DNA of 64,000 nucleotides from the NCBI GenBank assembly GCA_008632985.1, contig QPGO01000287.1, forward strand, positions 1 through 64,000, read 5' to 3'. Positions within the stretch are counted from its first letter, which is position 1. Each line of letters begins with the position of its first letter. The notes under the pieces were generated by a model that made no database searches, had not been told where the DNA came from, and saw only the letters and a program-made list of their open reading frames with translations. This stretch comes from Psammoneis japonica. Lineage: Eukaryota. The translations under genes were made by a program, and so were the position numbers. Shown here one piece after another: positions 3,001 to 28,458 of this stretch.

Positions 3001-4317
3001 AGGACTGACAATTGGGCTGGGGCAATTGACAAGGAGATGACTAAAGTCAAGGCAGCTTGGGCGAAACATGAAGAAGAAACTCTGCAACAAGTTCAAGAAG
3101 GAAAGAGTCAAAAGCTGTGTGGGTGCCAAGAGATGCAGTGCCATTTGACAGTTGACATCAAGATGGATTTTACACGCAAGGCAAGGTTTGCAGCTGGGGG
3201 TCATGCTGCTGGGGCACTGGAGTCAATTGCCTGTTCAAGCATTGTTTCAAGGAACAGTGCACGCATTGCTTTTATGTTGGCATTTGAACTGACGCAAGTG
3301 GACCCTGACACATGTTTGGGAGCAGCAGCCCATGAGGATGGATTTTTGAGCATTGTGAGATGTCATTGGTTTGTGTTGATGACACATTGACAATGTTGCA
3401 TCAAGGCAAGTCAGTCATTGAATCCATTGCTCAGTGTCACAAGATTGAGCCTGGAAGTGAAGGTGAGCCAAAGACTCACCTGGGAGCAATGACAGAGAAG
3501 ATCCAGATGCAGGATGGCAGGATGATTTGGGGCAGCTCACCAAGAGACTACATCAAGAATGCAATTGAGCCTGTTGAAGACTTGCCAAGTGAGGATGGAG
3601 ATGGTGTGGTCCTGAAGAACAATGCAAAAGATTCATTCCCATCAAACTGCAAGCCTGAGTTGGATGTGACAGATGAGCCACGTCCCAAGTTGATGTCCCA
3701 GTGTTTGCAGCTTGTTGGCATTGCAAGCTGGGCAATCAAGTTGGGTTGCATTGATGTTTTGTTTGAAGTGTCTTTCCTTTCTCAGCATCAGGCAAATCCA
3801 AGGAAAGGTCATTTGGAGGCCTTGTGTCATGTGTTTGCTTGCATCAAGAAGCAAGAATCGGTTTTGACCCTGAGAGTCCTGAGATTGGCAATTCTGTTTT
3901 CAATGCTGTGGCAGATTGGACCAAGTTTTATGGAGATGTTGAGGAAGAGCCATCACCAAGGATGCCCAAGCCATGTGGAAACCCGGCAGCCACACACGCT
4001 TTTGTTGACGCAAATCATGCAGGGAATGTCGTCACGCGCAGGTCACACTCTGGCGTTGTCATCTTTGTGAATGATTCTCTAATTGTGTGGTTTGGCAGGT
4101 GACAAAACATGGTTGAGTCTTCCATGTTTGGCAGCAAGTTGGTCACAATGTGGGTTTGCAAGGATGTGATTGTTGCTTTGCATCACAATTTGCGAATGTT
4201 TGGGGCACTGATTGACGGGCCAGCAAATGTGTTCTGTGACAATCATGGCATGGTGAAGAATGTCAGTGTTCCAGAATCCACTCTGCACAAGAAACAAAAT
4301 GCAGTTGATTGTCATGT
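1..4317 (+). mobile_element. Degenerate Ty1/Copia (CoDi-like) retrotransposon A, 5' part: gag, integrase, RT, start of RNase H
   Basis: Frameshifted ORF pieces: gag-like 'WIWIEQHNNTENGRDVFWAWANHCDGQGELSK'; 'AEELVRKWNVGLDAAKDSLNVATQQGVR' and integrase 'MDGAGEF..NQNQAAERE'; RT 'DIKMDFTRKARFAAGGH', 'LVCVDD'; RNase H 'AFVDANHAGNVVTRRSHSG', 'VFCDN..KKQNAVDCHV'. INT precedes RT (Copia order). There is an internal RT deletion near 3280. Confidence 0.9.
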
Positions 4318-4735
4318 TGCCCCATGCATGCACCAGGCGCTGAAAAAGAAGATGTGTTACGACTTTGTCGTTGTGAAAATCATGAGCTGGTTTAGAGCAG
4401 AGAAAATGGGATCGTGCGAGTAGGGAATCTTGCCAATTCCCTGTTCGGCATTGAATCGATCATGCGCTCGCATTGTGGATCGTGCGAATCAAGCCATCAC
4501 GCGCCATGCACGAGTGATGTCATCGCATGGAATCATGCTGCCATCGTGGGCCAGACGACGGGCCAGTGTGCTTCACACGGACGCTCTCTTGGCATCCTTC
4601 TGGAATTGCCCAAGACCTGGAGCCACGCCCTCCTGTGGTCGTGCTTCCCAGGCACGTGTTAACAACACTGCGTTGCCATGCACAAGAGGCTTGTGCACGG
4701 TCTCACTGTGTTGTCCAGTGGCGAGGCATGCTGCA
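4318..4735 (-). repeat. Gypsy-1 3' LTR
   Basis: Aligns to 10246-10677 with one small indel; lies next to the PPT. Confidence 0.9.
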
Positions 4736-4774
4736 CACTCCCCCATGATCAGGGCCGTTAAGTGACAGGATGTC

Positions 4775-7138
4775 TCACTGGTGATGGGGTGCAATCTGCC
4801 GTAGATTGCACGTGTCCATCAGCGCTCCGTTCTGGACACACAACGTGCCGTTGTCATGTGCACAGACAACTCTGGCGGGTCCTGCATGGCTGTCAGAACC
4901 GCATTTAGAGGATTGTTCCTGTTTGATGAGTGCCAATTGCCCTGCGGTGTGTTGACACTCCTTGCGTTTCTGATTTTCATGCTTGTTGTTTGAGTGGGTG
5001 AGCTTCTGCTTTCTGGTTTCCATGTGCTTCCACTTGGCACGATGGGCAACAGACAAAACCGCATCGCGTCCGAAGACCAATTGCACGGGACTTGCGCGCG
5101 TGGTCGTGTGTGCCGCAGCTCTAGTGGCGAAGGCTGCTGCGGAGAGGATGCCACTCCATGGGTCATCTTTGTCCAGTTCCACATCCTGTGCTGAAAAGGA
5201 ACGCACCATGTTGCCAAGTGTCTGGTGCACACGTTCCACTGTGGCATTTGCCTGTGGATTCCGTTTGCTTGTGGGTTTCTTCAAAATCCCACAGTCATTT
5301 TTAATCATCTGGCTAAATTCTGCCATAAATTCTGTCCCACGGTCATAAACCACCTGGGTTGGCCACGGATGCCTGCATGGCCACGTTTGTTCCACGAGGT
5401 TTGCTGCGACGTCTGCGCGTTTCGTGGACACTTCTTTAATCTCAAACCACCATGTTGCTGGGTCAATCATTGTGACTGCCCACAATTGCAAGGTGTCCTT
5501 TCCGCGTCTTTGAATTTTACATGGCCCTGTCACATCCATGCACAGAGTCTCCCATGGAATTATCTCTGCGACCTTTTCTGGTGGCTTCCCACAACGCTGC
5601 GTTCGGCGTTTTGTCTTCTGGCATCGATCGCACTCAACGCACGTAGAATGCACCGTAGACCTCATGCCAGGCCAATGGAAGTGCTGGGCAACAGACATTT
5701 CCGCACGTGTCTCACCTGGATGACACAGTGTCTCGTGGTGCCATTCAGTTAGCGGAACCTGCAATGACTGCGGCACTGCGATTTTGTCCTTATGACAGAT
5801 TAACTGTCGTGATGACCCTCCCCCACGACATGCGCGAATGGAGCAGTCGGACGAGTCCTTGGCTCTTGAGAGTGGGCGCTTGTCCTTTTGTTGTGCTTTT
5901 TGAATGCGCTTGAAGCTAACAGGCAGAGACAGCTCATCTTGCGCGTCTGCATTAAAAGCTTCATGCAAAGGACGACTCGATGGAGTGTCTTTTACATCCG
6001 GATTAGCCTCGAAAGGCAAGCTGGGTGCCAGTCGAAGGCGACTGAGAGCGTCAGCGACTGGGTCATGGGCACCTTTGACACAGCGTAATTCGGGACCGCA
6101 TTCTTCGCATGTCAACTGCCAGCGCATAACGCGCTCGGCATTGAATGCTTTGTGCGTAAGATTTTTATGATCAGTGTGTGTGATCACACGATGACCAAGG
6201 AGAATCGTTCGAAATTCTTTCAACGTCTCCACAATGGCGAGCAATTCTCTCTCCGTTGTTGTGTGATTTAATTGCGCATCATCAAGCTTTCTGCTGTAAA
6301 AGGTGACAGGTTTGTTGTCTTGGGATGTGACTGCTCCCAATTGACATTTAGAGGCATCGGTGTGCATCTCAAAGGGTTCATTGGCACGGGATCCACGGGT
6401 GCACCCGGGAATTGCGGGATGAAAGGGGAAAGGGGCAAATGGGAATGTTGGGAAAGCAAGGGGCTGTTGTTGTGCCTCAAGGGTCCCTTCAGTGAGCCGA
6501 ACACGCACATTTGTCATCTGACCATCATGGGTCCGTCTTGTGGGGGGTGTCAAAATGTTGTGAAGGGACGCGTCTTGAGGATTGGTCGTCACATGACATG
6601 TGTGGCTATGAAGGTCACACAAAGTTGAAAAACGCATGTGCGCGTTTTTTGTGTGTGTCGTTTTCAGATTTATATGATGTCAATGGTCAAACACACAATG
6701 CACAAAATCATTTCTCGAGACCGCGTCTGCTCCACAATTTGACGACCCCCGAAAGGACGGACCTGCGAGGGTCAAATCGGCAACAAGCGTGTTTGGCTGA
6801 CTAAAGGGTCCCTCAAGGTAAAACAACAGCATGTCACTTTTCCACCATTCACATTTGCCCCTTTCCCCTTTCATCCCGCATTTTGCAGATTCCCCTGGTG
6901 CATCCGCGGATCCCGTGTTAAAATCAGGATGTGACAACAAAACATCATCCGACATCACCCGTTTGACGGTTTCGAACGCCTCGTCTTCAACGGACGTCCA
7001 CTCCCACTTAACAGTCTCGCTTGCGAGTCGTGTCAGCAGAGCCAAGACTTCAGAACGTCCAATCCACGTGTCGCGGCAGCAGCTCACCATGCCAATGAAT
7101 GAACGTAGGTCGCGTTTGTTGGTTGGAGTCACGATTCG
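4775..7138 (-). pseudogene. Gypsy-1 pol: RT-RNase H connection, RNase H and integrase, interrupted by MITE A1
   Basis: 'LRSFIGMVSCCRD', 'LLSHPDFN|EPFEMHTDASKCQLGAV', 'HTTTERELLAIVETLKEFR', zinc finger 'HETLCHPG..CDRCQ', 'DRGTEF', 'NPQANATVERVHQTLGNM'. Confidence 0.93.
6385..6917. mobile_element. MITE A1 (533 bp), TTAA-specific, piggyBac-like non-autonomous element
   Basis: Long imperfect TIRs CACGGGATCC..GGATCCCGTG. Right flank TTAA (6918-6921), left flank TTGG (6381-6384). Removing it restores the pol reading 'DFNEPF'. Confidence 0.9.
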
Positions 7139-8537
7139 CTAAATGGCGTCGACTTTATTAGGTGTTGGTCGCATTCCGTCTCTGTTGACCAGATAACCCA
7201 AGTATTCTAATTGGGTTTGACAGAAGTGAGATTTAGTTGCGTTAACTTTTAGTCCTGCTTTCTGGACCCTCAATAAAACTTCTTCAAGTTTGTTGAGGTG
7301 ATCTTCACAGGTGCCTTTTGTCACGACGAGAAGGTCATCTAAGTACGTTCGAACGAACGATAGATCTTCAAATAAGCCTGACATGCGTTCTTGGAAAATG
7401 TCTGGCGAATTACATAATCCCATGGGCAATGCCTGCATCTCATACTTACCCCACGGGAAGATGAGCGTGCAGAGCTTCTTACTATCAGTATCCAATCGTT
7501 TATGATAATAGCCCATATTTAAATCCAGCGATGTAGCCCACATAAAGCCTTCGAGCTTAAGTAGCATATCTTGGATATGAGGAATCGCATAAGGCAATCG
7601 CTTGATCCGTTTATTAAGCTCTCTCAAATCATTAATAAAGCGTACCGTTAAATCTTTCTCCGGTATGATAAATGATGGAGCTGCCCATTGGGATCGGTTA
7701 ACGCGTTTGAGAACACCGATACGTTCTAGGCGTTCTACTTCTTTACGTAGCGTAGCTTCGTACGCACGAGGTACTTTATACGGACGAGCGTGGTATGGTT
7801 CTACACCCTCCTTGAGTTGGATATGGTAGGGTTCTCCCTTCCATTCTCCTAATGTCCCATCAAATAAAAACTCATGGCGTTTCAATAGTGCCAAAAGGTC
7901 GTTTTGTTGAACTATAGAAATTCCTATTGCCTCTCGCGTTATGTCCTTGAGGCAGGCCGGCGCGTGCTTAGCGTCTAAAATACGCGAAATCCGGTCGGTT
8001 TCCGAAGATAAGGCTTCTGGATCTTGAAGATAGAAGGAGGTTTCCACCGTAGCATCTACGTGCCTCATTGGTACTTCTCCATTGACTAATGGCCACTCTA
8101 TCATCTGTTTAGAGAAGACAATATCAATGCCTTGCGTCTCCAGAATGTCACGTCCAATAATCATATCGTACTTGCCCAACTTTCCGTTGTGTACGTGGAC
8201 GGTATGCTTAAGTTCTGCAGTTTCGCATAATTCTGGTAACCGAAATTTAACGGTACAGTCGTTGGACGTACTAAACGAGCCTGCTACCGTAGTCCAGTTT
8301 GTCTCAGCCGTTGAATGGCTTCGCAGACGTTTACAGTATCGACTATCGAGTAGAGTACTGCTGGCGCCACTATCTAGTAGTGCCTCAATAGTTTGAGTCT
8401 TGCCCTTGCCATGTTTAGTATTCATAGCTATAAACAAGATTGGAGTAAGATGAGTCTTTTTAACTCGTTTACGGGATTGGCCTACAACACGTGTACGATG
8501 GTAATTCAGTTGTTCATTTATACATTCATCTAATGTA
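7139..8537 (-). pseudogene. Gypsy-1 pol: aspartic protease and reverse transcriptase (well preserved, TA-rich)
   Basis: 'ALLDSGAS', 'YDMIIGRD', 'SQWAAPSFIIP', 'DLRELNKRI', 'LDLNMGYYH', 'PMGLCNSPDIFQ', 'YLDDLL'. One TAG at 7139-7141. Confidence 0.95.
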
Positions 8538-8541
8538 TTAA

Positions 8542-9075
8542 CACGGGATCCGCGGATGCACCAGGGGAATCTGCAAAATGCGGGATGAAAGGGGAAAGGG
8601 GCAAATGTGAATGGTGGAAAAGTGACATGCTGTTATTTTACCTTGAGGGACCCTTTAGTCAGCCAAACACGCTTGTTGCCGATTTGACCCTCGTGGGTCC
8701 GTCCTTTCGGGGGTCGTTGAATTGTAGAGCAGACGCGGTCTCGAGAAACAATTTCACACATTGTGTGTTTGACCATTGGCGTTGCATAAATCTGAAAACG
8801 ACACACATGAAAAACGCGCACGCACGTTTTTCAACTTTACATGACCTTCATAGACACACACACCATGTGACGATTGATCCTCAAGACGCGTCCCGTCACA
8901 ACATTTTGACACCCCCCCATGGGACGGACCTGTGATGGTCAGATGACAAGTGCGCGTGTTCGGCTCACCAAAGGGACCCTCAAGGCACAACAACAGCCCC
9001 TTGCTTTCCCAACATTCCCATTTGCCCCTTTCCCCTTTCATCCCGCAATTCCCGGGTGCACCCGTGGATCCCGTG
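8542..9075. mobile_element. MITE A2 (534 bp), same family as A1, in opposite orientation
   Basis: Perfect TTAA TSDs at 8538-8541 and 9076-9079. Near reverse complement of 6385-6917. Confidence 0.92.
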
Positions 9076-9107
9076 TTAAAACTACCTGCATCGTGTCGGC
9101 CCCCTTC

Positions 9108-10184
9108 TCAGGCGTCCGAATCTTCGGAATCACTCAAGTTGAGGTCGCGGAAGTGATTGAGCTCCTCCTCGTGGGCCTTGCGCTTTTTCTGAGCATTGGC
9201 AAAGAACTCCTCGACCTTTGATCCGATGAGAGCATCAACATCTTCCTCATTCCGAGGTTTTGTGTCAGGCTTGCCACCTCCGTCGTTGGAATGTCCAGTC
9301 TTGACACGTTTCACGTGGTGCTTGAGCTGACGGCAATCCTCCGTGTGATGTCCACAGCCAGTCCTGTGCAGCATGCACGACTTCTGGGTGTTCCGTTGGG
9401 TCGTGATCAATGACTCAGGATTGTCCGTTCTACGTCCCCGCTTGCGTGGAACCTCAGTGTGTTGGTCCTGGTTGCCTTCGGCAAGCTCGACCTGCTCGAT
9501 GCGCTCACAGAACTGTGCAAATTCGGCGACAGTGTGCGCCAACGGGTCAAAATTCTGTAGCGTCATGAACTTCTGCCATGCGTTCGGCACACCGCACTCG
9601 AACACATCGCACAGTTCGTCATTGGGCAATGGTGCCGGTGTTTCTCCATCCTCCGTCACGGGTGGAAACTGAGAGACACAGCCGTTAATTTCAACAGCCC
9701 TCGTGACGTGGTCATGAGCAGAAACCTCTGCAGGCTTGCACGTGAAGCGCCGCAGATGACGCTTCTGCAGTGGTGCCGCCCCATGTGGGAAGACACTTTC
9801 CTTTAGCTTCGCGATGCATGCTGCGCACGCAGCGTTGGTTTGGGATGCCTGCTTGTCAGCGGCATCATTAAATGACGTCAGAGCATCGCCCTGTAGCAGG
9901 TCACGCACAAGGGCAAATTTTGCTGGCCCGGTCGTGATGTTTTGTCCTTCGTGCACGCGATCCACGTTGCATAGAAAGATCAGGAGTGTCTCGCATGTAG
10001 CCGCAGAAAGGTGCGGAATGCCCATCTCGTGCGTTGGACTGTCTGGATCAGCAGGGTTGTTGCGCAGCTTGAACGTCTGGCACTCGCCCTGCTGCAGCTC
10101 TTTCTTCTCCGGCCGTGCGAACGGAATCGGCAGCTTGATCCGCTTCTTCATGGTCGTTTCAAGATTTGTCGGTCCAACCAACAT
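9108..10184 (-). pseudogene. Gypsy-1 gag
   Basis: Open ORF between the 5' LTR and pol, with a C-terminal 'CMLH..GHHTEDC' knuckle-like motif. Confidence 0.85.
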
Positions 10185-10245
10185 TTCGTAGTTTCGTTTC
10201 TGTAGATTTCGTTGCCTCGCACAACATGCGGGAGCAATGTTGCTG

Positions 10246-10677
10246 TGCCCCATGCATGTGCTGGGCGCTGAAAAAGAAGATGTGTTGCGACTTTGTCGTT
10301 GTGAAAATCATGAGCTAGTTTGGAGCAGAGAAAATGGGATCGTGCAAGTGGGGAATCTTGCCAAATCCCCATTTGTTCGCATTTGGATCGCATTGAATCG
10401 ATCGTGCGTTCGCATTGTGGATCGTGCTAATCAAGCCATCACGCGCCATGCACGAGTGATGTCATCGCATGGAATCACGCTGCCATTGTGGGCCAGACGA
10501 CGGGCTAGTGTGCTTCACACGGACGCTCTCTTAGCATCCTTCTGGAATTGCCCAAGACCTAGAGCCACGCCCTCCTGTGGTCGTGCTTCCCAGGTGCATG
10601 TTAACAACACTGCGTTGCCACGTGCAAGAGGCTTGTGCACGGTCTCGCCGTGTTGTCCAGCAGCGAGGCACACTGCA
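10246..10677 (-). repeat. Gypsy-1 5' LTR
   Basis: Direct repeat of 4318-4735, followed by TSD ATGT. Confidence 0.9.
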
Positions 10678-10850
10678 ATGTGACAAGAGAAGCGGTTGCA
10701 TCTGGAATCATGAGAGTTGGAAAGGAAAACACAGAGACAAATTTGGCAGACTCACTGACAAAGCTCATGACAAGTGCAAAGCGTTGGGAGTTGTGCCCAT
10801 TTCTGTTTTGGCAATGGTGGAGCCCATTTGCCAAGGTTCAGGGCCTGTGA
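10678..10850 (+). mobile_element. Copia A, continuation of the RNase H C-terminus
   Basis: 'VTREAVASGIMRVGKENTETNLADSLTKLM' continues 'KKQNAVDCHV' from 4317. Confidence 0.9.
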
Positions 10851-11415
10851 CTTGCATTCATGCCTTGCAACCTCCCAAGCCAGACTGGCTGGTGGCAAAT
10901 TGGGTTTGTGTTTTGCCTCTCTGTGTGAGGATGTTTCTGGCAAACAAATTGACAAGTCCAGTCAATTTGCTGGGACCGAGCAAATCCAAGCAGAGTGGTC
11001 TGTCTTGGTTGGTGTGTGGGCAAGACAGGAAGAGAAGCCTGAAAGGGCTCACAATCTTCAGTGGTCTTTTGTGTGAACAAGCATGTGCATTCATTGCATT
11101 GGAGCAAGATGAGGCAAGGGTGTCACAGCATGAACCATGACACTGCATCACTGTTTGTTCATTTTGACACTGTGGCACCACCACGCTGTCAACACTCACT
11201 CCTGCCCCATCCTCCCTTGCCGCCCTTGTCAAGACACATCCACTCCACAGCCTTTCCCACACCCCACACCATGCCCACCTTCAATGCAAACTGCAACAGC
11301 TGCAACAACAAGGACCTCCACATGTCACCCTTGCACTCCCGCCCCTCCTCTCTCCACTTGCAAGCCACCCTCTCCACTCCCTTGCTCCCTCCTCCCTCAA
11401 CAACACCTGCCTTTG

Positions 11416-14400
11416 TCACAATTCTGCCTCATTGGCGTGCCACTTGATGACAACTTTGTCTCCAGCAGACATGGCTGGGACATTGCACATGGTTTTCTTG
11501 ACAACATTCTTGATGCTCACTAGTCTCAATGAATCCAACTCATTTGGATCTTTAACTCTGGTGGAGAGAAAAGCAATTCCAGGCTGGATGTCATGTCTGG
11601 ATCTCTTGCAAACAATCATGCCCTTCATTGCAAAAGTGCAACATGTCTGGGCACATTGAGCATCCAATTTCTTGGCAGTCTTGTCCACCTTGTTGAGCTT
11701 CTCACTCCACAGGCAATCTGCATCGCCTGACAGTTCTTCTGGGAACTCTGTGATTGTACCTCAAAGGTGAGCCACCATGTCAACTTGCAGCACTCCTTGA
11801 ATTGTGCAATCCAGAGTCATGGCCAAGCAGTCATGCCTCTTTCCATGTGTCACCTTGACCTTTCCAATCTTGTCTGCATGAGTTTTGTTGAGCCAAACTT
11901 GAAATTCATCATTGACTTTGCTGTCAACATGGCTTGCTTTTAATCATCCACATGCCACATCACTGTGCATGCTGTTTTCTGTTCACAGTGCATTTTGCCA
12001 CACATGGATCACAAGGATTGACTTCAAATCCCATTCCTTTGATGTCCCTGTGGAACTTCTTGTGACAAAGAATGGAAGACACCAACATTCTTTGAGTCCC
12101 TTCATCATTTCCACATGGAGAGCCTTGTGCTTGCCTTTGCACACATGTGCTCTGCACAAGTCTCAGGCACTAATTCCAGCAGCATGTCCACCATCCTTCC
12201 ACGGATCTTCATGATGATTTTCTCCTCCATGCTCTCAATTTCCATTTGCACAAATGCACTCAAATGTCTGCTGTCATGACGTCTTGGCCTTGTTTGGCAT
12301 CAATCACTCTGTCATCAAAATGGACTCAGTGGATGCTGTTGGACTGGCAGTTTTGTTTTGGTCCATGCACTCTTGTTGCGTGCTTCCATTTGCACACAAC
12401 CTCAACTTGATCGACCATCTCTTTCTCTGTGAGAAACATGAGGCTCTCCATGGCTCTCTCACTCTCTAGGGAGTCATGTCCTTGATGTGAATGGGCTTGA
12501 AAACCACTTGTCATGGATCTGCTTCAGCTCTGACATGGCTACTTGTGGCCTGATTCTCCAAACTTCTGGAGTCCTCTTGCCAAGCTTTGAGTCTGAGCAA
12601 ATTGCTGGGCTTGCTCAATGGTGGCAATCATGCTGATCTTCTTGTTCCATTGGCACATCATTGCAGCCATGATTCTGGCTGTCTCAAGACTGCACTCTTC
12701 AACTTTTGTGTGAGCTTGAGTCTGAAGATGACATTGACAGTCACCAAGTCCAGTTGGGGGTTTCAGAGCCCTTCCTGATCTAGATGTGGCAATGGGCTCT
12801 TCATCATTGCTCTCTTTGGATTTGCTCTGTTCCTTGCTGTTCTCTTCTTTGGATTCCAGATCTTGCATTTTGTTGATGAGCTCTTGCACTTCTGGAGAGA
12901 CTTCCTTGTTTTGACTTGGATCAGCAAGCTCAATCATTTTGTCGATTTCTAAGGAGGCTCCACTTCCGTCAGACAATTGAGAAGCAACTTCATCATTTTC
13001 TTCCAGTTGCTCATCTTGAGGCATTTCTCCTTGTTCATGTCAATGAAGCTGGCTTCTTCATCCAATTCTTGATCTCAGATGATTTCTTGCAGCTCTTCTT
13101 GGCTGACTTTGTCATGCTCTCCCCAGTCTGGTTCTTCATCCTCATCACACTCTGTTTTGATGTCTTCTTCTTGATTGCAGTCTTTGTCTTCAAATTGACC
13201 TTTGTCACAATCCACTCCTGCAAGCCAAGCACTGTTGCACAAAACAATTCTGGTGTGATTCTCAATCTTGAGACCATTGGGCATCTGGTTCAATTCAGCC
13301 AATCAATGAACTTTTTTGATGATGGAGGGAGTGACGGGCACAGGAGTGACCTTGTGACAGGTGATCTTCTTGCCTGTGTGCAAGTGCAGCAACTTGTGTC
13401 CATCTGCTGGTTGCTGTTGGTGGGGTGCAAATGAATGCAATCCAAGGTCCTCAACTGCTTTTTTTGGTGTTCTTGGGGTCTGGGTTGTTGTGAGCCCGCA
13501 CGCAAGCACCAAATGCAACCTTGCAGCTCTTGTCATGATCCAGACTCTGTTGATGCAGAACCATTCTCAGACTGCAATGTTTTGAAACACCGTGCTTGGC
13601 TGGAAAATGATTGAGCTTTCTGGCAGCTTCAGTGACCATGAGTTTTGGCAGATGCTTGGATGGCAGTTGATGACAGACTGCCCTGGTGCATTCCTGAATG
13701 ATGCAGTTGTTCCTTTTGCCTTCTGAGGCATGTTCCTGAGCACTTGCACAAATCATTGTGAGATCAAACTTGTCTTCCAGCTCAGGCCTAACAGGCCGGA
13801 ATTCATTGTTGCAACAAATGCATGTGACCTTTAAATGGCCCCATTGCAGACACGCAGCTCACCTTCCAGAGCTGCCTTGTGGGTCTCTGGGTCAAATCGC
13901 AAGTGGCTGCACAGTGAGGTAAAAAATGTTTCATGACACTGTGGTGAGAAATGGCAATCCATTTACCTTCAGTCTGTCCAGTCAAAGAGTGACTTTGTGC
14001 TGAGCCACAATGAGTTCCTTGGGGATCTCCACACAATCTTCTGTGACAGGCTCTGGCTTGTGCCTGGCACCTTGCCTTTGAGACTTCCGATGTCTGGTCC
14101 AAAGATCTGCTGGCCAAGCCCACATCCTCCACAGTTGCGGGATTGTTCTTGATGCTGTTCATGTGAATGATGGTCTTCAGATCCTTCATGGTTGGGTCTC
14201 CCAATTGCACAACAATTCTTGAGCCTTGCTTGGCTTTCTCAAACTGGCATGGAGTGCAGAACTCCTTGTTTTCTTCCACACTCTGCACAAATTAGAGCTG
14301 AGCTCCAGTTTTGCCAATCTTGGGCTTGCAAACGTGCAGCCCTTTCCCATCTCCTTGAACCTGACCTTCTTGTTGGGCAGATGAATGGTGAATGAGTTGT

Positions 14401-14420
14401 CTTGCAAGGAATCACTTGTG
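11416..14420 (-). mobile_element. Degenerate Copia retrotransposon B (integrase-RT region; different family from A)
   Basis: 'QSVEENKEF', 'AQEHASEGKRNN..IQECTRA', 'LNHFPAKHGVS', 'GLQKFGESG', 'MESLMFLTEK', 'GFEVNPCDPCVA', 'CKRSRHDIQPGIAFLSTRVKDP'. Confidence 0.88.
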
Positions 14421-17400
14421 CATCAGAGGCTGCAACACAGCGGTCATTGCTGTCATCATTGTTTGTTTGCCATTGAGTTGCACTCATGTTTTCTTTTAAA
14501 TTTGAAAGTTAAATTTGATGGTTTTTTGACAATGCAGGGCATTTGCACATTTCATGAGGAGTTTGTCATCTTTTTACATCAACAGTTTGTTTCAAAGCAA
14601 CCTGAATTTGAAAATCTTTTGTGGTCAATTCTTTGTGTTGCAATGACCAAAATTGCTTTTGATGCTTTATTTTCAACTTGGTTTTTGCTTTTCCCACCCC
14701 ATTTGTGTGTCGCTGAGTGTGCTGGCATCATGTCTGCGCCCCAGTCATCTCCATGGGTGCACTTCCTCTTTGCACCTCACTTTTTCCCAGGGCTCTGTGC
14801 ATGTTTTCCACTGCATTTTTAGCACTTTTTCTGCATGCACCATTTTCTGCACATTTCACAACAGTGCACCCTCTCCCCAAAATCCATTTGACCAGCGTGT
14901 GTGCTGCTGTGATTCATGCACTTTCCATGTGAATCACCAACTGATTGCTGGCCATGGTGGTCAAGGACTTCACCCCCCATCCATGGACAAGGTCAACCCC
15001 GATCCCTCATTTGTCTTTGCTGATGATGTCAATTTTGACAAAATGGGACATTTTGCCAATGGTTTTGGAGTGGAGCTGTTTGAGCCCAAGCTCAAGAGCA
15101 TGACTGCCATGCATGCACCCAAAAAGCAGTTTGTGAAGAGAACAAATTGGTTGCCCTCTCCAGAATCCCTTGCACTTCCCTTTCTTTGTCACAAGCCAAA
15201 GCCTCGTTGCATTCCCTGCATTGCTGAAGTCATCTGCACCAACAGCATTGTTGCAAAAACTCTCAGACATCCCAATGTTTGGTCCTGCATCATGACTCAT
15301 GGTTGGTTGATGAAGAAATCCCACCAGAACGAAGGCAAACATGTTCTTCAGTGTTGAAATTTGGACAATTCTTTTTTTCTACGCAGTGCCACAGGAGAGA
15401 CAGGAAAAGAAGAGGAGCACTGTCGTGACCTTCACCACAACATGAAGGCAACGGCAGGGTTTGTGTGCCACATCATTGCCGGCAAGGACCTCAATGATCC
15501 TGTCACAGGTGAGCCTTGTTTCTGTTTTTATGGTGCAAAAGTCTCCCAAGATCTGATTGATGACTGTGCACATGACCTTCACAGTGCACACTTTGTCATC
15601 AAAACAGTCATGCATTGTGTCCTCTGCAAACCCAAGGACAGGAGCCATTGGTTTGTGCAGATCTTTTGTCACATCACTGCCCACAAGGAGTTGTGCATTT
15701 TTGTCAACAGCTTTCTTGTCACATGCAAGTCCAATGAAGTTGGTTCCAAGGAGGAAAAAGTCAAGGGTTTCTTGGACAAACTCTGTGACATCAAGAACTT
15801 GGTGACAATGGAAGGCAATGCTGCAGCCACTCAAGAGGCATGCAAGGCAAAAATGAATGCCATGTCACAGCATGAATTTAGGAAGCATTGTCCAAAAAAG
15901 CAACCCAGCACACAACCCAGGTGCTCCAAACAGCTCACATGCCCTGTTGCCAAATGCCTGATCAAAGGGCTGACTGCTTGGATGATGATGAAAAACCGGA
16001 GCATGGTTCAAAAACCAAACGTAAAATTGGAAGGATGCACAAAGATGGCACCTGCGTGCATGATGCTGGCAAGTGCTTCCTTGCACCTGCACTGTTGTCA
16101 TGTGTTCCTTTTTTTATGGATCTCTTCCCTCCTTGATTTTTTTCTCCACAAGAGCCTTCTTTGACTGTCCATTGCAAGAAGACAAGACCATTTGTTGTGC
16201 AAACCCAGGACATCCCTTGGTTTCTGGCAATGTGTCATCCTCCAGGGAGGCACACCACACCCCAACCACTGACATTCCCCCCTTGTCAGGAGGATTCATG
16301 GATCTGGCCAAACCTTCTCCCCCCTCCAAAGGTTCTCTCTCAAAAGGATGCCTCTCCAACATGGGTGTTGCTGCAAATGCACCAGTGCTTGCCTCTCCTC
16401 CAACTGACCCCAATGACATGTCATGGCCAGACAAGTTCATGCTCCATCAATGCTTTGACCAATCTGAGTGTCACGCTGAGGAAGTTGTTGCGCACATCTC
16501 ATGCCTTCACATTGTCAACAATGCCACAGATGTTGAGTGTGCCTTGCAGATGATTTGAGGCAAAACTGGCACAAGCTTGCCAACAAAACCACCTTGGGCA
16601 ATCCCACAATGGGCTCCCAGGTCTGCATTGAATGCCCTCCTTGCCTGGGGATCACTGCTCAGAGGATCTGTCCATTGCCAGACAAGCAAGTGCATTGCAC
16701 AAAGCTCACTTTGGCAGTCTTCAAGTCTGCTTTCCAACCCTCCTTCTGCTTTTTTTGAAGGGAAAGTCCAATCTCAAGCACAGCAGATTGGTGGCTGTTG
16801 AGTCTGGAGACAAATGAAGGGTCAAGTTTGAAGTTTGGTTGTGCCAGACTGGCTCTTCCAAATCTGCCAAACCCATGGCAACACATGGTCTTGATGTTTT
16901 TGAACATTTGTCTGTCTGGTGAGTGCAAGGATGAACAGCTTCAAATGACTCACCGTCACTTTCTTTTTAAAAAAACAATGAAGCCGTGAAGAGAAGAACA
17001 AATCCTCATGCCGAGTCCCAAAAAAAAACCAAACCCCAATTTCAAGTGCTGTTGCACCTTTGCCCAGCAACCCCGGCGCCGGCCAACCCACACTTCCAGT
17101 GCACTCTACAGAGGATGCGGCAGAAATGTTGTGCAATTAGCCGGATTTGGTGCCCTCAGCAGAGGGTGCCCGATGGAAGCAGCTGAAGATGGTGCGAGTG
17201 CCTCTTTTTGCCAGGCGCTTGGCTTCTTTCAGGCTTTCTTTAAGTCTTGGGCAGACCACAGAGATCCAATTTTGAGCCCTCATTGCAGCGAATGATCGGT
17301 GTTCTTCAATGGAATCAAGCAGTGCACCTCTGTCTTTAGCCAAATGTTCTTGTCGTTTGTTGTGTGTCGCCATCAATTTGGCTTCCACCTTTCGTCTTTG

Positions 17401-19019
17401 CGATGATTTGCGAGAATCTACGTTGTGTCCGTGTACGAGCTGGTCATGCCGAGTCCCAAAGTTGACATTGGCCCAGTCATGCATGGGGCCTTTGCTGTTG
17501 CAGTCTGGGTGGGCACAGCAAGAGTCAACTCCATTTTTGTTGCAATGCTCAGTGTTGCACAGAAGCCTTTTGGAGGAAGTCTCTAAGTTGCTGACACAGT
17601 CCCTCCACTTTTTCCCTGCAAACTTGAGCAGGACCGGGTGCACCTGACACTGTTTTTGCTTCCCCAGCCAGAGGAACAAAATGGCCTTGCATGTTTCACC
17701 ATGCTTCAGTGAGTGCAAGCTCCCACCCAGTTGGTGTTGTGCAATCTTCCCTGGAGTGTGATTTCCTTTTTCTGCCTTGGATGAAATCCATGGGTTGGCA
17801 AAGATGGTGTTGTGAACCATCATTTGGTCTTCCATGCAAGACACCACCTGGCTGAGAAAGATGTCAAAGCTGTGCTGTTGGGCTGTTGCCAATGGCAACT
17901 TGAAAAAATCCTTCAACAATGATTCACCCAGTCCCCAGCAAAAGTTCATGGCACGTCAGAAAAAACATGGGAATGTTGGCAAGTGAAGCAGTTCATGTGG
18001 CTTTTGCAATTTCCAACCAGCTCCTTTGTGCCTTGGGGAGAAATGAACCACACAAGAAACAAGCAATTGAATTTTCTTGGCAATTTTGTGCAGGTCATTT
18101 CTGTCTCTTGGTGGGTTGCCCAGCTTGCACCATGCATGGAAGGCAAGCAAGACTTTGAGTGGCTTGACACACTGGCAAACACTGCATCTTTCTTTTGATT
18201 GCCCCCCACGGATGGCCAACAGCTGGATGTCAGATGTCGTCAACAAGAGAATGAACCTGGGTGACAAATGCAAGCGTGATTGTGAAGACAAGAAAGAGAG
18301 ATGCCATCAAAGACACAAGTGTGGGCAGAAAATGGAAAAAATCTGTCACAGATTCATGGAGTGTTTTGTCAGATGTGTTCGTGATGCAACAAACACATTT
18401 GATGGAATGACTGATTGTTCTCACAATGGAAGCCACAGCAATTTTGTCATTGCACACTTGGAGGAAGATGCCATGGATGAATCAGATTGGACATTGATCA
18501 TTGCGCCAAGTTGAGAAGAAGGCTGGGAACTGGCGGGAGGGATGTGCGTGTTGTTTGCGCCAAAGAAAAAACTTTTGCAGGTGTTGACATTCATGCACGC
18601 ATTTAGATCAGTTTTAAATGTGTGCAAATGAATGTTTGATTGCTGAAATTGCAGTGAACAACATGGACGCCCTGGCTTGGGAGTGCGGGGCTTCAGGCTC
18701 ACATTGTTTGACAGTGTGGCGCTCACGCTTTGCAAGAGTGGCAAGCATGTGAATTTTTACAGTTGATGAAAAATGTGCTTTGGGGAGAAGGACATTTTGT
18801 TTTTCAATGGTTGCTCATGTGTGATGGTCACAAAGACAAAATTTGACAGTGTCATTTGTTTCACTTGAAAAGAAATGGAGTCATTCGATGTTCTTTAGTT
18901 TGCCGCAGAACATGTTGAAGTGTTTGTGTGAATGGCAAACAATTGTCTGTTGTGTGGTGTGCTTGTCTGCAGAAGTCCTTGCAACACCATGGTGACAATG
19001 TGCCCAGCATGCAGCAAAG

Positions 19020-19555
19020 GACTGCAGAGAATCATTTGCTGATGCAGAATGCCAGATGCAGCACAACTTTCTGACAGTGCTGTTTGGTGAGACTCCAGCC
19101 AATGATGACCCAAGGCTGGCCCTGTCTGCAATCCCTGTCAATTTTCCAGGACTTTCCATCCCTTGTCCAACAGAGTCTGCAGCTCACAACTGTGAAGTGA
19201 GTGCTCTCACGTGCTCCCACGAGATTGACTCACTCTGTGGCTGCTCCCATTTCTCCTCTGCAGTTCACAAGGACACCATGCACAAAGTGAAACAAGAAGT
19301 GGCCAGTCAAAGCACATTGGGAGACCCTCAAAACATTCCTCAGGACCCCACCTGACCTCAAGGCCAGAGCTGTCAAGCACAGTGCCAAGACTGGAGCGTG
19401 GCTGTGTCAGCACTCCTTCTGACACTGAATGGCACAGAACTCTCATGCCAAGAGCTCCACGATGTGATCTTCTTGCATTGTGGCGGCACTCCACCAGACC
19501 TCCTGGAGTGCTGCAATGGATGTGGATGCAAATTCTCCATGAACCACGTCCCTCA
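19020..19555 (+). mobile_element. Non-LTR retrotransposon fragment (CRE/NeSL-like; post-RT region and zinc knuckle)
   Basis: 'FLTVLFG..RLALSAIPVNFPGLSIPCP' and 'LNGTELSCQELHDVIFLHCG..CNGCGCKFSMNH' resemble the C-terminus of restriction-like-endonuclease LINEs. Confidence 0.7.
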
Positions 19556-19581
19556 ATTGAACCCCACCCATCCTGACAGTG

Positions 19582-19944
19582 TGCCAACCCACTGCCCACA
19601 GAGATCATTGATGTCAAGCCTGGAAGACAACAAAAACCTGTCAACATGCCAAATGCGGCACCAGAATCCACTCCACTTTTGTGTGCACAGCCTGCAAAAA
19701 AGTTCGTGACAACTGCCCCTTGCTTGCACAACTGCATTGGCCACATGACATCCATCTCTTTTGGTGCGACAGATGTCACATGGTTAATGCAGTCACACAA
19801 GCGAGGGGCAGTTGTTGTGTGCAACTTTTTGCAGGCTGTGCATGCAAAATTTGAATGGATTCTGGTGCCAAGTTCAGCATGTTGGCAGGTTTTTGTTGTC
19901 TTCCAGGCTCGATGTTGATGGTCTCTGTGGGCAGTGGGTTGGCA
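19582..19944. repeat. ~360-bp imperfect palindrome (foldback/MITE-like)
   Basis: 19582-19752 is the reverse complement of 19772-19944 (tgccaacccactgcccacagaga.. / ..tctctgtgggcagtgggttggca), with a loop of ~19 nt. Confidence 0.85.
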
Positions 19945-22900
19945 ATGACAACCAGAGTGCAAAGATGAGAACATCAACAAAACCAACCAATCATGTGGAA
20001 CTTTTGACAAGATCAGTTTAGCCACATGAACAGAATGCTGTGTGCAGGTGCAGTGGCAGTTGTTGTCACTCATTTGCCGTGGCATTCTTTTTCAGAAGTT
20101 GCATTGCTGGTGCAGCTGTTCATCACACTCAGTTGAGAATTTACAACAGGACAACAAAATGTCATGGAAGAGCAAAATGTTGAGATTGGGTTGAAGGTTC
20201 CTGCTGAAGATGATGCAAACAAGGAGGAGACAAAGGCCAATGTCAAGAATGAGGATGATTTGAAGGAGGGGCAGGAAAACAAGGAGATGCAGGATGTGTC
20301 TGTGGCCAGCAATCATCCTCAAGGCAGAGGAATTGACATTGCAACCACTCCCACGTCAGTGGATCCAGGACAAGTTTTCACCTTCATGGCCAGTTTTTTG
20401 CATGACAAAAAAAGAAATTTGGAATGTCAAATTTGTTTGGGGCACCCAGAGATGTGACCACGCATCATGCCAAGGGAAAGGATGATGTTGCTCCAGATGA
20501 AGAGAAAAGATCCAATGAAAAAGATTCACAAAAGTGATTTGAAGCCAGGAAAGAAAGAGAAGAAGAGCACAAGGACAACTGAACCTGAGTCAGAGGAGGC
20601 TCAGGCTAAAAGAATGGCCTGTTTGAACAAGTTGAATGAATGTTTTGATGAGTTGGTCATGACTCCAGAAATCAAACAAGAGACATTGGAGTTTTTGTCT
20701 AAGTTCCCGGATGATGTGGAAAATTTGGGAAAGTGGTTGAACAAACAATTGTCCAATGATGATGACAGCTGTTTCATTGGCACGTCAATGGAAAGCATTG
20801 TTGAATTTGACAAATGCTTGTGAGCTGCCATGAGAGGAAACAAGATGGAAGCAAAGACGTTGAGAAAGGACTTGTCAAAGCAGCTGCCTGATCTTGGGTT
20901 TTCATTGGAGGGATTTGACGACTCCTGTTTCTGGATGTTTAAAGAAGGTTTTGAGGGTGGTGACAACCCGTTGAACTTCAAAAAGAGTTCATTTGTTTTC
21001 CATGAGGTGAGTGTGAAAATTGATTTCAAGAATTTTGACAATCTGTTTCTCTTTCCAGTCTGGCTGTTGTTCCATTGTTGCTTGGTTGCACAAGAATGAA
21101 ATTAAGAAGCTGGAGATGCAGCAACTGGCACATCATTTTTGCAAGCTCATGGCAAAAAATTGTTCAACAGCGACTCAAAAAAATGTCACCAGAAGTTTCC
21201 AAAATTGGAAGAATGATGGAAAGGTGTGCCGAAGGGAGAGAATGATTTTGGGTGGGTGGGTCATCCAGTTGCGTTTTGTTGAACATTGGAAATGGCAAAA
21301 TTGGTTGTTTCACAAGCTGTTCTTTTTGTTGTTTACAGTCAAAAGGATGTCAACAAACAAAGGAGAATTTTGTGCTTTTTGCATGGCTTTGGGTCTCTTT
21401 CTAAGTTTTCATTGGTTGCAATGACACACTCAAATTGTGGTCTCTGAGTTGTTTGTTGGGGATTTGGAAAGCAAGATGACAAAACTCAGAAAATGTTTGA
21501 AGTCTCACAGAAGTGGCTCACATGTGGCTGTTGCAAAACTTTTGAATTGCACTTTGGAGAATCACATCCCAAGGCAAAAGCATTGCACCAAGCAACAAAT
21601 GCTTGAAGATGAAAAGTGAAGTGCAAAGAAGGCTGGGGTGAAGGGCAGCAATCAAGTTGGAGGAAGTGATTTTAAGTTGAGTCCAGCACAAATGCGGTCC
21701 AATGCACCAGCTGCAATGCCTCAAGACACAGCAAAGAGAGCAGTTGTGAGTGCAATTGTCCACCGCAGTTGCAATTTGGCGACATTGGAAATCCTCCAGG
21801 CTGCAGCTTGAGTTGGCAACAAACCCATCAGCAATGAAGTGGCAGAGTCTGCCAAGCAAAAGTTGTGCATGCGCAAGTGGATGCAAGTGCTTTCACAACA
21901 CAAGTCCATTTAATTTAGTTTGGAAATTGTGGGTTGCATGTTTGTTCATTGACACTTTTTGTGTTGTGCTTCTTTTTGTTTTGCAAACGTGGCTGCGTTG
22001 GTCTGATGGAGGAAGACTGCAATGAAAGTGGTCACAAGAAAAAAAGACACACAACTGAAACCACCAAATCAACTTCCAAAGCTCGCACACTGATGAGGAA
22101 GAGGTCAAAGAGGACAGCTCAAGCAACAGTGATGGTGAAATTCCTGGTGATGAAGAAAGTGTGGAATCTGTGGCTGGGGAGTGCAAAAGAAAGTTGCAGA
22201 AGTGGAGAGTCTGATTGAAAAGGGCAAGGAAATGTTTCAGCCACATTTGGAAGACAAGAGCAGCAAGAGCAACAACAATTGGTGTCAAGCCGTGATTCCA
22301 CCACAATGTGATGGTTGCATTGGCAACAGCAAGCATGTCCAGTTGTGTTGGGTTTGTTTGAAGTTGCCAAAATGTGGTGTGTTTGAGATGTTTTCATGCA
22401 GCAATTAAGTTTGATCAAAACACAACCACTGCAATTCATGTGATGCAAGAATTGGCAAGCTTTGTGAGTGAGAAACATTGGCAACATCTCATTCTTAAAT
22501 GTTGTCATTGGTTTGGCATGAGTGGTTGATCAACAGCACAATTTGCAACCTTGTCATGCTTGTTTTTAAGTCAGTTGTCAAAGATCTTGTGTTGATGACA
22601 AACAAAGATGATGGTGTTGTCATCGGCTTTGTTGCTGACAAACTCAAATTGAAAATGGGAGAAAAGCACAAACAAAACCTGGTCTGGACAGAAGATGTGA
22701 TGATGAATGTGAAGGAAAAGGTCATCCTGCATGGCATTGTTCATGAACCTCATTGGACGCTCATGCTCAAGGAAGAAGAAATGTTTTCCTGTTTGGGTGA
22801 AATGGTGGCAAGTCAGTTGAACAAAAGCAAAGAAGGCTCAGAAGACATCCACCTTCAAATCCATCATCATGTGCACAAAGGGCACAAGTTGATTGTCCAT

Positions 22901-25900: not shown

Positions 25901-28091
25901 CAGTGTTTGGGAACATTGCCTGAGATTGAGTGTCCAAGATGTCACCACCGGTTCTCCCTGCTTCAATTTCAAATTCAAAAACATTCAAGCCAACACCTTG
26001 GAAAATGAACAAATGCAAAGAAGCAATCTTGTGCATGTGAAGAGCACTGATCCTCATTTTAGAAGGAAGGAATGCAAGTCAAGACAGCAATCATGTTTGC
26101 AACAATGTCTTTGTGAAAAGACCCTCCTGCAATCCCACACAAAAATTTGGACCCCCCAAACCAGCGTGCCCACACCTGGATGAGAACAACATCAGCACAC
26201 TTGAGTTGGCAGTTGTGGCAGTGTGCACAACTCCAGAAAAAGCTTTTGCAGTCATTGCGATTTGGCAGAAAGTCACAATGTGATGTGCTGTGACATTGAC
26301 CAATCCAACAACCTTGAGCTGCACATCTTTGGGTGCAACTCTTTGAAACAGCATCATGGCAATGTCCGTCTGTTCAATGATTTTGAAAGATTGTGTCCTC
26401 CTGATTCTTGGATGACAAGCATGGCACCACACACAACAAAAAAATGTGGAGGACACAAAAAATGACATTGGTTTGCAACAATCTTTAGAATCTGCACAGG
26501 TTGATCTGTTTGAAATGACAAAAATGCCTTGAACAACCCTGTCCTGTTGAATCCAGATCACACCAATTGTCAACATCCAAACAACAACGTGTTCTCAAAC
26601 TGCAGCTCAATCTTCAAGCTGCAGAATGTGCATCTCATCATTGTTGCAAATGAAGTCATGCTGCTCATTTGCGTGAATGAAATCATGCTGGCTTTCTCTG
26701 TGTTGTCAAATGAAGTGTTCAGCACAAGCTTGGAGAGTTCTCTTTTGTTGCCTTGCAAGCCTGTCCCCACATTGGCAATGTGTTGCAGAAGCCATGGCAA
26801 CAACAAACCAACGGAACCACAACAAGCAGTTGCAAAACAAAACAAAAATGTGCTGTGCTTGCCAAAGACAAGATCAGTGCAAAAGTGCCCAATGGCTTCT
26901 TCCTGATGACCTTGAGCCACACAGAACCTGCCAAGCAAGTGCAGCCAGTCTTGTCAAGCAACAAAAATGACCTTCCTTTGAATGTCAACTGGCTGTGCAG
27001 CATCAACCATGAAAAAAGGAAATGCCTTGCTGAGATCAAGAAAACAAACAAAGAAAAGATGAAAATTTGAGGAAATCATTGTCTCGCCCATTGCAGGACG
27101 TGAAAGACAAAAAAGTCAATGTTCGCACCATGCACACAAACAAATCAACGTGTTGTTCCTGTCCATTGTCTGACATTGTGCAAAGCCCATTGGGATTTTT
27201 GCAAAGACCCACACATCCCACATGAGACCAGGGAAAATCAGCACCAAAATGACAAAAAAAAGCATGACCCACATCATCCAACCAGATTGCTGGGTTTGGA
27301 AAACAAAAGCAAATCAATGCCAGTCATTGTGCCAGTCACAACGGCCAAATCCCAACAAAAGAGCAAATCTGTTATTTTGTGAACATGTTTTGCAATGAAA
27401 AAAATTTGTGTGGGTGCTCTTGCTGAACCATTGCAAGTGGTCACACAAAGCAGAAGCCTCCTGTGTGGAATGAGTGCTGCACGCGTGCTGATGTTGAAGG
27501 TCATTTGAAAACTGGCCCCCCTTTGGAAACCCCAATTTGGGCAACAACACAACACATTGCAACCAGCAAAGGCAATGGCAAGGAAGACAAGGAAGGAGAG
27601 GGTGATGGCAGAAGACACACCAAACAGCCCAAGGCCAGCAGCAGCATTGTTGCAGGCAGGAGCTGCTGGAGCCAATCTCTGAAGAGAGAGGTGGAAGAGG
27701 TGGCACAGAAAAAGCTCTTCCCAAAAGCAAAATTTCTGGTCAAAGCAGGGCAGAACCACCAAAAACCCAGCTTGGACAGAGACAAGAACACAAGCAACGA
27801 CAGAGCTTTCCAGTGATGATGAGGACAATTTTAAGACAAAATGGAAAAACCTGGCAACAGAAAGGATGAGGAAAAAGAGGAAGAGAGTGAAGAAAATGGC
27901 GACGATGACAAATGTGGAGCAACTGCAGTGCAGGCCTGTTGAAAATGAAAAATGGTTGACACCACAGCATCAGTTTGGTGTTCATTGACAAGCCACATGA
28001 AATGGCAAAAGCAACAGCTCATTGTTCATCAGGAATGTGGCACAAAAGTCATTGCACAATTCATGTTAAACATGAAAATTGGCACGCAATG

Positions 28092-28458
28092 TGCACTATG
28101 CTCGAAGAACGAGTGTAAACGAAAGTAGAATAGTGTACGAAAAGTGGAAATTATAAGATTAAATTTTGCTCTGTGATTTTTGGTTTCTCCGAACGAGTTC
28201 TCAATGGCCTAAAGCTTCTGTACTGTTTCTACAGACAAAAGGCCTTTCGGAGAATATATTCGTGACAACAGATTGTCCGGATACGATTGCTATTGACACG
28301 TAAGATGTCAACATCGTCAATCGATCGTATTTGCAATTCTCGACATCCGATCAACTCTGTGTGATCGTTCTGTCCTTTGTACGCATCCACGACTGTGGTA
28401 CGATTGACATATAAATAATATATAATCATGAATGTGTATATAACAGTCGCATACTGCA
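28092..28458 (-). repeat. Gypsy-2 3' LTR (TA-retaining copy)
   Basis: Gap-free alignment with 32464-32830. Confidence 0.95.

Follow-up and report, generated by a model that had tools for sequence, protein, structure and literature searches.

Gypsy-1 and its tyrosine-poor half

The sequence analysed here, the first 64,000 nucleotides of contig QPGO01000287.1 from the diatom Psammoneis japonica (assembly GCA_008632985.1; this whole stretch is called the window), carries a Ty3/Gypsy retrotransposon, Gypsy-1, in whose polyprotein gene (pol) conserved tyrosines have given way to histidine and cysteine. The element is read from the minus strand, is bounded by long terminal repeats (LTRs) that end in TG...CA and show 89.8% identity in self-BLAST, and is flanked by a 4-bp target-site duplication, ATGT, where it has inserted into an older, more heavily mutated Copia-like element. 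The parts referred to below are the following (ORF, open reading frame; RT, reverse transcriptase; TA, the dinucleotide TpA).

4318..10677, minus strand: Gypsy-1, Ty3/Gypsy LTR retrotransposon, from the self-BLAST LTR pair, Pfam and a continuous pol frame
4318..4735, minus strand: 3' LTR of Gypsy-1
4778..6382, minus strand: TA-depleted RNaseH-integrase part of pol, 535 residues
6385..6921: foldback copy 1, inserted in Gypsy-1 pol, with TTAA at its right end and carrying the in-frame TGA 6680-6682
6923..7132, minus strand: TA-depleted tail of the RT region (MVSCCRD, LSHPDF), 70 residues
7142..8537, minus strand: unmutated protease-RT segment of the same pol, with normal TA density and Tyr kept (YLDD and others)
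8538..9081: foldback copy 2, within Gypsy-1, with TTAA on both sides
9111..10307, minus strand: TA-depleted upstream gag-side ORF of Gypsy-1, without Pfam match
10246..10677, minus strand: 5' LTR of Gypsy-1
3336..4067, plus strand: Copia-type RT-region ORF (LVCVDD) of the older host element, TA- and CG-depleted

Membership in Ty3/Gypsy is given by the order protease, RT, RNaseH, integrase, all in one frame, with Pfam matches to gag-asp_proteas/RVP and RVT_1 in 7139-8632(-) and to RT_RNaseH, Integrase_H2C2 and rve in 4775-6679(-). The pol frame runs from 8437 to 4775, and its sole breaks are TAG 7139-7141, TGA 6680-6682 and the 537-bp insertion at 6385-6921; positions 4775-7100, the subject of the initial annotation, represent the 3' half of pol on the minus strand. 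An autonomous active copy is expected to hold an uninterrupted pol with its conserved residues, and Gypsy-1 departs from this by two in-frame stops, the foldback insertion and the loss of 16 of 19 conserved tyrosines to His or Cys.

All ten peptide strings that the initial annotation had quoted as instances of Tyr replaced by His or Cys were recovered in the window, six of them, from Gypsy, within 5663-7090 (-) and four, from the Copias, at 3366-3383 (+), 12002-12019 (-), 33477-33497 (-) and 33663-33677 (-). The pol of the window was aligned to its 120 best homologs (identity 46-58%), and a column was regarded as conserved for Tyr when at least 60% of the homologs carried it, with 80% as a second threshold. 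Tyrosine accounts for 2 of 535 residues in 4778-6382(-) and for none of 70 in 6923-7132(-), as compared to 14 of 432 further upstream in this pol (7142-8437, minus strand) and a mean of 4.1% in the 120 homologs; the probability of finding at most two tyrosines in 605 residues at 4.1% is 4e-9. Histidine and cysteine are enriched in 4778-6382(-), with 27 and 21 of the 535 residues against homolog means of 2.9% and 1.4%. With two tyrosines left, the ORF is better described as Tyr-poor than as Tyr-free. The replacement itself is borne out column by column: the 19 conserved-Tyr columns of 4778-7132 now hold 8 Cys, 8 His, 1 Phe, 1 Ala and 1 Tyr (at the 80% threshold, 12 columns with 6 Cys, 5 His and 1 Tyr), and the codons at these positions are always TGY for Cys and always CAY for His. 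As control, the protease-RT part at 7142-8437 keeps Tyr at 7 of its 9 conserved-Tyr columns. Natural variation among intact relatives does not offer an explanation, for at the 16 columns concerned His or Cys occurs in only 0-6 of 77-120 homologs each. Among the six Gypsy examples DASKCQLG has to be withdrawn, its column being occupied by T in 44, Y in 15, L in 13 and V in 12 homologs and so having no conserved Tyr.

The older Copia-like element gives the same picture. Its ORF 3336-4067(+) was searched with HMMER in a library of 1.84-billion protein representatives and the 150 best relatives were taken. Nine conserved-Tyr columns are now 5 Cys, 3 His and 1 Tyr kept, and the LVCVDD position cited in the initial annotation is among them, with Tyr in 76% of 89 relatives. 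Thirteen of the 150 best relatives have less than 1% Tyr and show HVDD or CVDD for YVDD, the rest having 3-6% Tyr; the ten of these whose origin was looked up come from JGI/IMG, ENA, NCBI and Logan. Tyr-free, His/Cys-rich Copia RT fragments in the collection are P0253, P0281, P0282, P0313, P0322, P0333, P0338, P0346, P0348, P0357, P0377 and P0381. With the Tyr-free protein P0313 as query, a scan of metagenomes returned six intact relatives (L001-L006), each with 9 Tyr over the matched part except L005 with 8, at an observed-to-expected ratio (O/E) for TA of 0.55-0.68, and a mutated contig (L007) with no Tyr, TA O/E 0.14 and CG O/E 0.91. Where four or more of the six intact relatives share a TA (23 sites), L007 has CA 9 times, TG 13 times and TA once; it keeps 42 of 61 CA, 43 of 55 TG and 22 of 40 CG sites. 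Judged by these sequences, the TA-loss signature is not confined to the genome of P. japonica.

Direction of change and dinucleotide signature

The change was proposed to run from TAY to CAY or TGY, that is, from TA to CA or TG, and four lines of evidence agree on this: the Tyr columns above, the accounting of codons, the other copies of the family and the open, TA-rich core of pol. Metagenome contig L007, set against its intact relatives, points the same way. In 4778-7132, the 355 conserved columns contain 91 mismatches, of which 36 are explained by a single TA>CA (18) or TA>TG (18) change, and the unmutated half of the same ORF has 1 such case in 32 mismatches. The substitutions predicted at other TA-containing codons were recovered for I>T, I>M, I>V, L>P and V>A, and L>S is absent among the conserved columns; T>A and N>D are likewise found among the explained mismatches. 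Along Gypsy-1 pol the TA>CA and TA>TG changes form weak runs only, on informal inspection of their spatial clustering. Other copies of the family were seen in contigs of run X1, and the 40 best-supported sites at which they depart from the window were compared. At 15 of them a CA or TG of the window stands against TA in the other copies, the share of TA ranging from 9% to 100%, and at 8 more the other copies have CG; 181 of 194 kinds of site change among the family copies are transitions. Runs X2 and X3 gave next to no coverage of the window. The reverse direction, in which CA/TG would have become TA in the core as in the repeat-induced point mutation (RIP) of fungi, was considered and rejected, the core being an open frame with canonical residues and a TA O/E of ~0.9, not above 1. 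RIP-like change from C to T would have filled the core with stops and raised TA above 1, and the direction is therefore TA to CA/TG.

That the reading frames stay open, as the initial annotation had it, follows from the code, since TA>CA/TG does away with TAA and TAG and, whatever the frame, gives rise to no new stop codon. Between fresh and depleted transposon DNA, TAA falls from 20.8 to 2.2 per kb and TAG from 12.5 to 0.9 per kb; TGA rises from 17 to 27 per kb, and the overall stop fraction declines from 5.0% to 3.0% only. Many overlapping ORFs of at least 110 aa occur on both strands of the saturated DNA (154 in the window), a consequence of the loss of TAA and TAG. No transposon domain was found by Pfam in ORFs of the saturated regions (124 ORFs of at least 110 aa scanned window-wide, E<=0.01), which we ascribe to the missense changes brought about by TA loss.

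The saturated DNA, 32.3 kb in total, was defined as positions 1-4317, 10678-28091, 32831-38000 and 58600-64000. Its composition is given here as O/E together with that of the other parts of the window.

Saturated transposon DNA: TA 0.05, CA 1.83, TG 1.79, CG 0.17
Gene-rich part: TA 0.55, CA 1.10, TG 1.16, CG 1.05
Unmutated (fresh) transposon DNA: TA 0.93, CA 1.01, TG 1.05, CG 1.27
10678..28091, saturated transposon block: TA about 0.05, CG about 0.17, CA and TG about 1.8

A mere 124 TA are left in the 32.3 kb, and the dinucleotides not listed above have O/E values of 0.87-1.25. The process affects TpA almost exclusively, consists of transitions only and comes near saturation in old transposon DNA. 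At both ends of Gypsy-1, TA O/E is 0.14-0.29 per kb window and CG O/E 0.7-0.9. The TA dinucleotides that survive in saturated DNA were compared by context with the 1678 TA sites of unmutated transposon DNA. Among the survivors TTAA is over-represented 6.6-fold, contexts with C before TA on one strand and T on the other are over-represented 3.3-fold, and ATAT-type and A/G-type contexts do not occur. From this enrichment we derive an order of target efficiency, A>G>C>T at the position 5' of T, equivalent to T>C>G>A at the position 3' of A, with TTAA as the main survivor; the ranking is approximate because some of the survivors may be newly created TA.

Repeat pairs, tract edges and timing

Paired repeats of common origin reveal where and when the changes arose, and the clearest pair belongs to a second LTR retrotransposon, placed within the saturated DNA.

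28092..32830, minus strand: element 2, second LTR retrotransposon, with target-site duplication AATG and an RNaseH fragment at 29521-29952
28092..28458, minus strand: unmutated LTR of element 2, 29 TA and 21 CG
32464..32830, minus strand: mutated LTR of element 2, 14 TA and 21 CG

From 28092 to ~30200 element 2 is unmutated, from ~30200 to 32830 it has lost about half or more of its TA, and its edges against the saturated flanks are sharp. Its LTRs align over 367 ungapped positions with 15 differences, at positions 6-361, and at every one of them the 28092 LTR has TA where the 32464 LTR has CA (13) or TG (2) on the plus strand, without any other change. The chance that all 15 changes would fall in TA is about 1e-12, and the 13:2 strand bias has p=0.007. 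The two LTRs derive from one template and are of the same age, and the changes therefore arose after integration. The process thus acts in situ on integrated DNA, since nothing but changes at TA sites distinguishes the element 2 LTRs. It works by region, its tracts having sharp edges within single elements and a strand bias that can be strong (13:2). CpG decay is slower and can be told apart from it, young insertions losing TA at normal CG. Sharp, unmutated edges of young insertions against saturated flanks are what in situ mutation over time is expected to produce.

The LTRs of Gypsy-1 differ at 33 of 418 aligned sites, 31 times by transition, with 30 of the differences in pairs of pyrimidine-purine (YR) dinucleotides (YR/YR) and 7 CA-versus-TG doubles. 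Likewise, 42 of the 44 differences between two foldback copies are transitions, and CA stands opposite TG in 15 double mismatches. In the control, a tandem duplication of the gene-rich part, 24 of 50 differences are transitions and 36 of the 50 lie outside YR pairs. This duplication (38570-39493 / 39732-40619) is ~0.9 kb long, 90% identical and situated at the border between saturated transposon DNA and genes.

The foldback element is palindromic, about 450-540 bp long and has the termini CACGGGATCC...; the TTAA on its flanks points to a miniature element of the piggyBac type. Copies 1 and 2 both lie within the Gypsy pol. Its copy 2 is missing from other copies of the Gypsy family, where run X1 contigs show the empty-site joint 8537>9076. 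The family itself is multi-copy, with 5760 contig pieces and a summed depth of ~10^4 as compared to ~33 for two single flank contigs, a ratio not to be read as a copy number. One run X1 contig joins 4690 to 10636 with 5945 bases skipped and represents a solo-LTR form of the family elsewhere in the genome.

Interpretation and relation to known systems

Based on the evidence above, we understand the replacement of conserved Tyr by His and Cys as the result of TpA-specific transition hypermutation of transposon DNA after integration, a reading to which we assign a probability of about 0.7. Several observations weigh against it. Seven of the 91 mismatches are A>G or T>C changes outside TpA, as with N>S in MVSCCRD. 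Gene DNA is itself lowish in TA (0.55), so that some genome-wide loss of TpA may be ordinary. Tyrosine makes up at least 2.4% of each of the 120 Gypsy homologs taken from public data, so that no Tyr-poor sequence is among them. The edges of the tracts could reflect recombination between mutated and unmutated copies, which would weaken the in situ argument from the LTRs. The contigs of run X1 (word depth ~33) show 0 differences from the depleted flank 3000-4346 and so exclude an assembler error, but the run, whose library type is not on record, may itself have supplied the data for the assembly; independence therefore rests mainly on the metagenome data. Lastly, a repeat-directed process should hit the whole of a high-copy element, yet 7142-8537 is untouched.

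This core of 1.4 kb has its right edge exactly at the foldback insertion (8538) and its left edge at ~7140, beside the in-frame TAG 7139-7141. The end of the mutated tract at ~7140, inside the same ORF, is sharp to within about 100 bp and had escaped the initial annotation. Our preferred reading is that the core was acquired by gene conversion from an intact copy and that conversion halted at the foldback heterology, because the core ends at just that foldback which the other copies lack. An assembly chimera or repeat-collapse error is possible instead.

Could the TA loss have come about without dedicated machinery? TpA might simply be the most mutable dinucleotide in silent chromatin, through damage or error-prone repair, and the stronger depletion of older elements, the parallel decay of CG in the old ones and the TA O/E of gene DNA are all consistent with this. 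Decay of that kind is nevertheless hard to reconcile with two LTRs of the same age that carry 15 TA changes versus 0 and no other substitution, from which it follows that the rate was episodic and regional and exceeded background by a factor of tens at the least; the 13:2 strand bias within one tract, the tract edge inside one ORF and the ordinary spectrum of a genic duplication of similar divergence speak against it as well. We consider passive decay improbable. GC-biased gene conversion was examined and dismissed, in that AT O/E is 0.87, other dinucleotides containing A or T (W) are unaffected and 15/15 LTR changes fall at TpA.

Editing at the level of RNA would place the event before integration: a deaminase akin to ADAR or ADAT, with a 5'-U preference, would hyperedit transposon transcripts, and retrotransposition would write the edits into new copies. 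The affected sequences are indeed mostly retroelements, the changes are A>G/T>C only with 5' T preferred, and the 13:2 bias of element 2 is for A>G on the element's sense strand. Edits carried by the transcript should however be shared by both LTRs, and those of element 2 differ at 15 TA sites and those of Gypsy-1 likewise; A>G should be seen on the sense strand only, and T>C : A>G is 18:18 in Gypsy-1 pol, with 9 and 13 in L007. DNA other than retroelements is affected (the TTAA-flanked foldback copies and a 1.2-kb TA-free stretch without transposon signature), young insertions show sharp unmutated edges inside saturated DNA, and the specificity for TpA is near absolute, with 15/15 in element 2 and 22/23 in L007. 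An RNA origin therefore appears even less credible than passive decay. The least credible of all, to the point of being negligible, is an artefact in which a modified base, for example thymine at TpA, is misread by sequencing or assembly and the true genome keeps TA. The domain-like, chromatin-reminiscent distribution of TA loss and the missing record of the supporting run's library type would permit it. Against it stand the independently built run X1 contigs that repeat 3000-4346 without a difference, the presence of TA at the same sites in other copies of the same run in varying shares, the stable site-by-site mixture of TA, CA and TG in LTR pairs, and the recurrence of the signature in contigs of metagenomes and in proteins of four further sources. 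Moreover, a miscall of both strands in each column would generate CG from TA, and CG stays at 21 versus 21 in the LTRs of element 2.

Returning to hypermutation of integrated DNA, we find it probable that the process is directed and enzyme-driven, aimed at repeats or silenced chromatin, and thus RIP-like in function while running from A:T to G:C. The change from TA to CA, when read on the opposite strand, is one from TA to TG, and elements would be disabled by missense at the Tyr of the RT Y-x-D-D box and at Tyr in RNaseH and integrase. Inactivation would be by missense and not nonsense because TA>CA/TG cannot create stop codons. As regards the chemistry, our leading guess, tentatively held, is hydrolytic adenine deamination at 5'-TA: the adenine in 5'-TA-3' of one DNA strand would be deaminated to hypoxanthine by an enzyme of the deaminase fold, which would be the simplest way to arrive at A>G. 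Adenosine deaminases of the tRNA type have a 5'-T preference, which fits the proposed reaction at 5'-TA. The next guess, and a rather unlikely one, is a modification of the TpA thymine such that it mispairs with G. Diatoms, or an environmentally abundant group, might conceivably possess a dedicated defence system that acts on silenced or repeated DNA and changes A:T to G:C at 5'-TA-3', one strand per event, its agent likely a natural DNA adenine deaminase or thymine-altering enzyme; it would be the first natural A:T-to-G:C DNA hypermutation system, and we put this forward as speculative, possible more than probable.

Repeat-directed hypermutation is known in fungi (RIP, C to T), and retroelement editing is known in animals (APOBEC, ADAR). 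Repeat hypermutation is thus familiar as a kind; there is a substantial chance that the enzymology involved here is categorically new. Analogies exist to fungal RIP in the dinucleotide-specific transition hypermutation of integrated repeats, in saturation, in the strand bias of tracts and in a signature readable from dinucleotide indices. Integrated DNA, transitions only and strand bias, as required for RIP, are all found here (element 2, 15/15 and 13:2; Gypsy-1 LTRs, 31/33). The direction is not that of RIP, which, according to PMC2621366 and PMC7882544, changes C:G to T:A, mainly CpA to TpA, raises TpA and gives many stop codons. Here, in a diatom host, TAY has become CAY/TGY by A:T to G:C change, TpA is erased (O/E 0.05) with CA and TG at about 1.8, and stops cannot arise. 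RIP furthermore extends over the whole of a duplication and spares unique DNA. In the window the 1.4-kb core of Gypsy-1, a high-copy element, is untouched and a 1.2-kb stretch without recognised repeat is TA-free, which may set the process apart in this respect too. RIP depends on a DNA methyltransferase of the RID type and takes place before meiosis; diatom DNMT4 is treated as a relative of RID in PMC9998398.

The hyperediting of viral or retroelement RNA by ADAR and the ADAT-based A-to-I editing of fungal mRNA resemble the present process in A>G change, in the 5' U/T and in clusters on one strand. Both act on RNA, however, and the LTR differences and the affected DNA transposons indicate DNA. 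ADAR, in addition, has a 3' G preference and a looser preference for neighbours, as compared to the 3' order T>C>G>A found here. Editing of cDNA by APOBEC-type enzymes (C to U on the minus strand, G to A in the sense) is in disagreement with changes that are T>C and A>G. Deamination of 5-methylcytosine in CpG is alike in leading from a pyrimidine-purine dinucleotide to CA/TG, and it is present in the older elements of the window (CG O/E 0.17), but it cannot remove TpA and is unlike the 15 TA versus 0 CG changes of element 2. Very-short-patch repair in Escherichia coli turns T:G mismatches into C:G and depletes CTAG. It is alike in its net change of TA to CA/TG and unlike in being slow, genome-wide and bound to one methylation motif, not regional, saturating or repeat-associated. 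Base J in kinetoplastid telomeres and 5-hydroxymethyluracil in dinoflagellates exemplify an enzymatic preference for T in TpA within repeats or silent DNA. These are epigenetic marks, and the process here is a heritable sequence change; bases of this kind are not known from diatoms. In the portion of the literature covered, with subscription journals outside its scope, we found neither a report of TpA-to-CpA/TpG hypermutation in algae, diatoms included, nor one of 5-hydroxymethyluracil in diatoms.

If the proposed reading is true, a DNA-level, TpA-specific process from A:T to G:C adds new chemistry in a major eukaryotic lineage and constitutes a mirror image of RIP, with transposons killed by missense and never by new stops. 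It would account for the failure of domain searches to detect old diatom transposons and for the long spurious ORFs on both strands, which would mislead gene finders. Dating by LTR divergence would be inflated and uneven, the 4% and 10% seen here stemming almost entirely from the TA process. TA O/E together with Tyr-free, His/Cys-rich polyproteins would serve as survey marker for genomes and metagenomes, and should the agent be a DNA adenine deaminase, possible natural adenine base editors would be of interest for genome editing.

The gene-rich part of the window forms a 20-kb island whose borders with saturated DNA, at 38300-38400 and 58300-58400, are sharp at the 200-bp scale on both sides. 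Within the island, 43801-45000 is a 1.2-kb stretch with zero TA and normal CG. It holds a Tyr-free ORF of 253 residues (44212-44970, minus strand) after a Pro/Thr-rich low-complexity stretch; this ORF matches no Pfam family, and no homolog of 139-443 residues was found for it. The process may here have spilled over into a gene, whether of the host or an orphan, beside a foldback element, foldback copy 3 at 45131-45585. The right TTAA of that copy is now TCAA, itself a TA>CA change. Ordinary host genes of the island, with TA O/E of about 0.55, are an AFG1-like ATPase (45948-47549, plus strand), whose named relatives are all diatom records (Thalass.., Cha.. and Cylindrotheca) at 48-55% identity, a urea transporter (51373-52599, minus strand), a presenilin fragment (49465-49869, plus strand) and a leucine-rich repeat (LRR) protein (42307-42945, plus strand).

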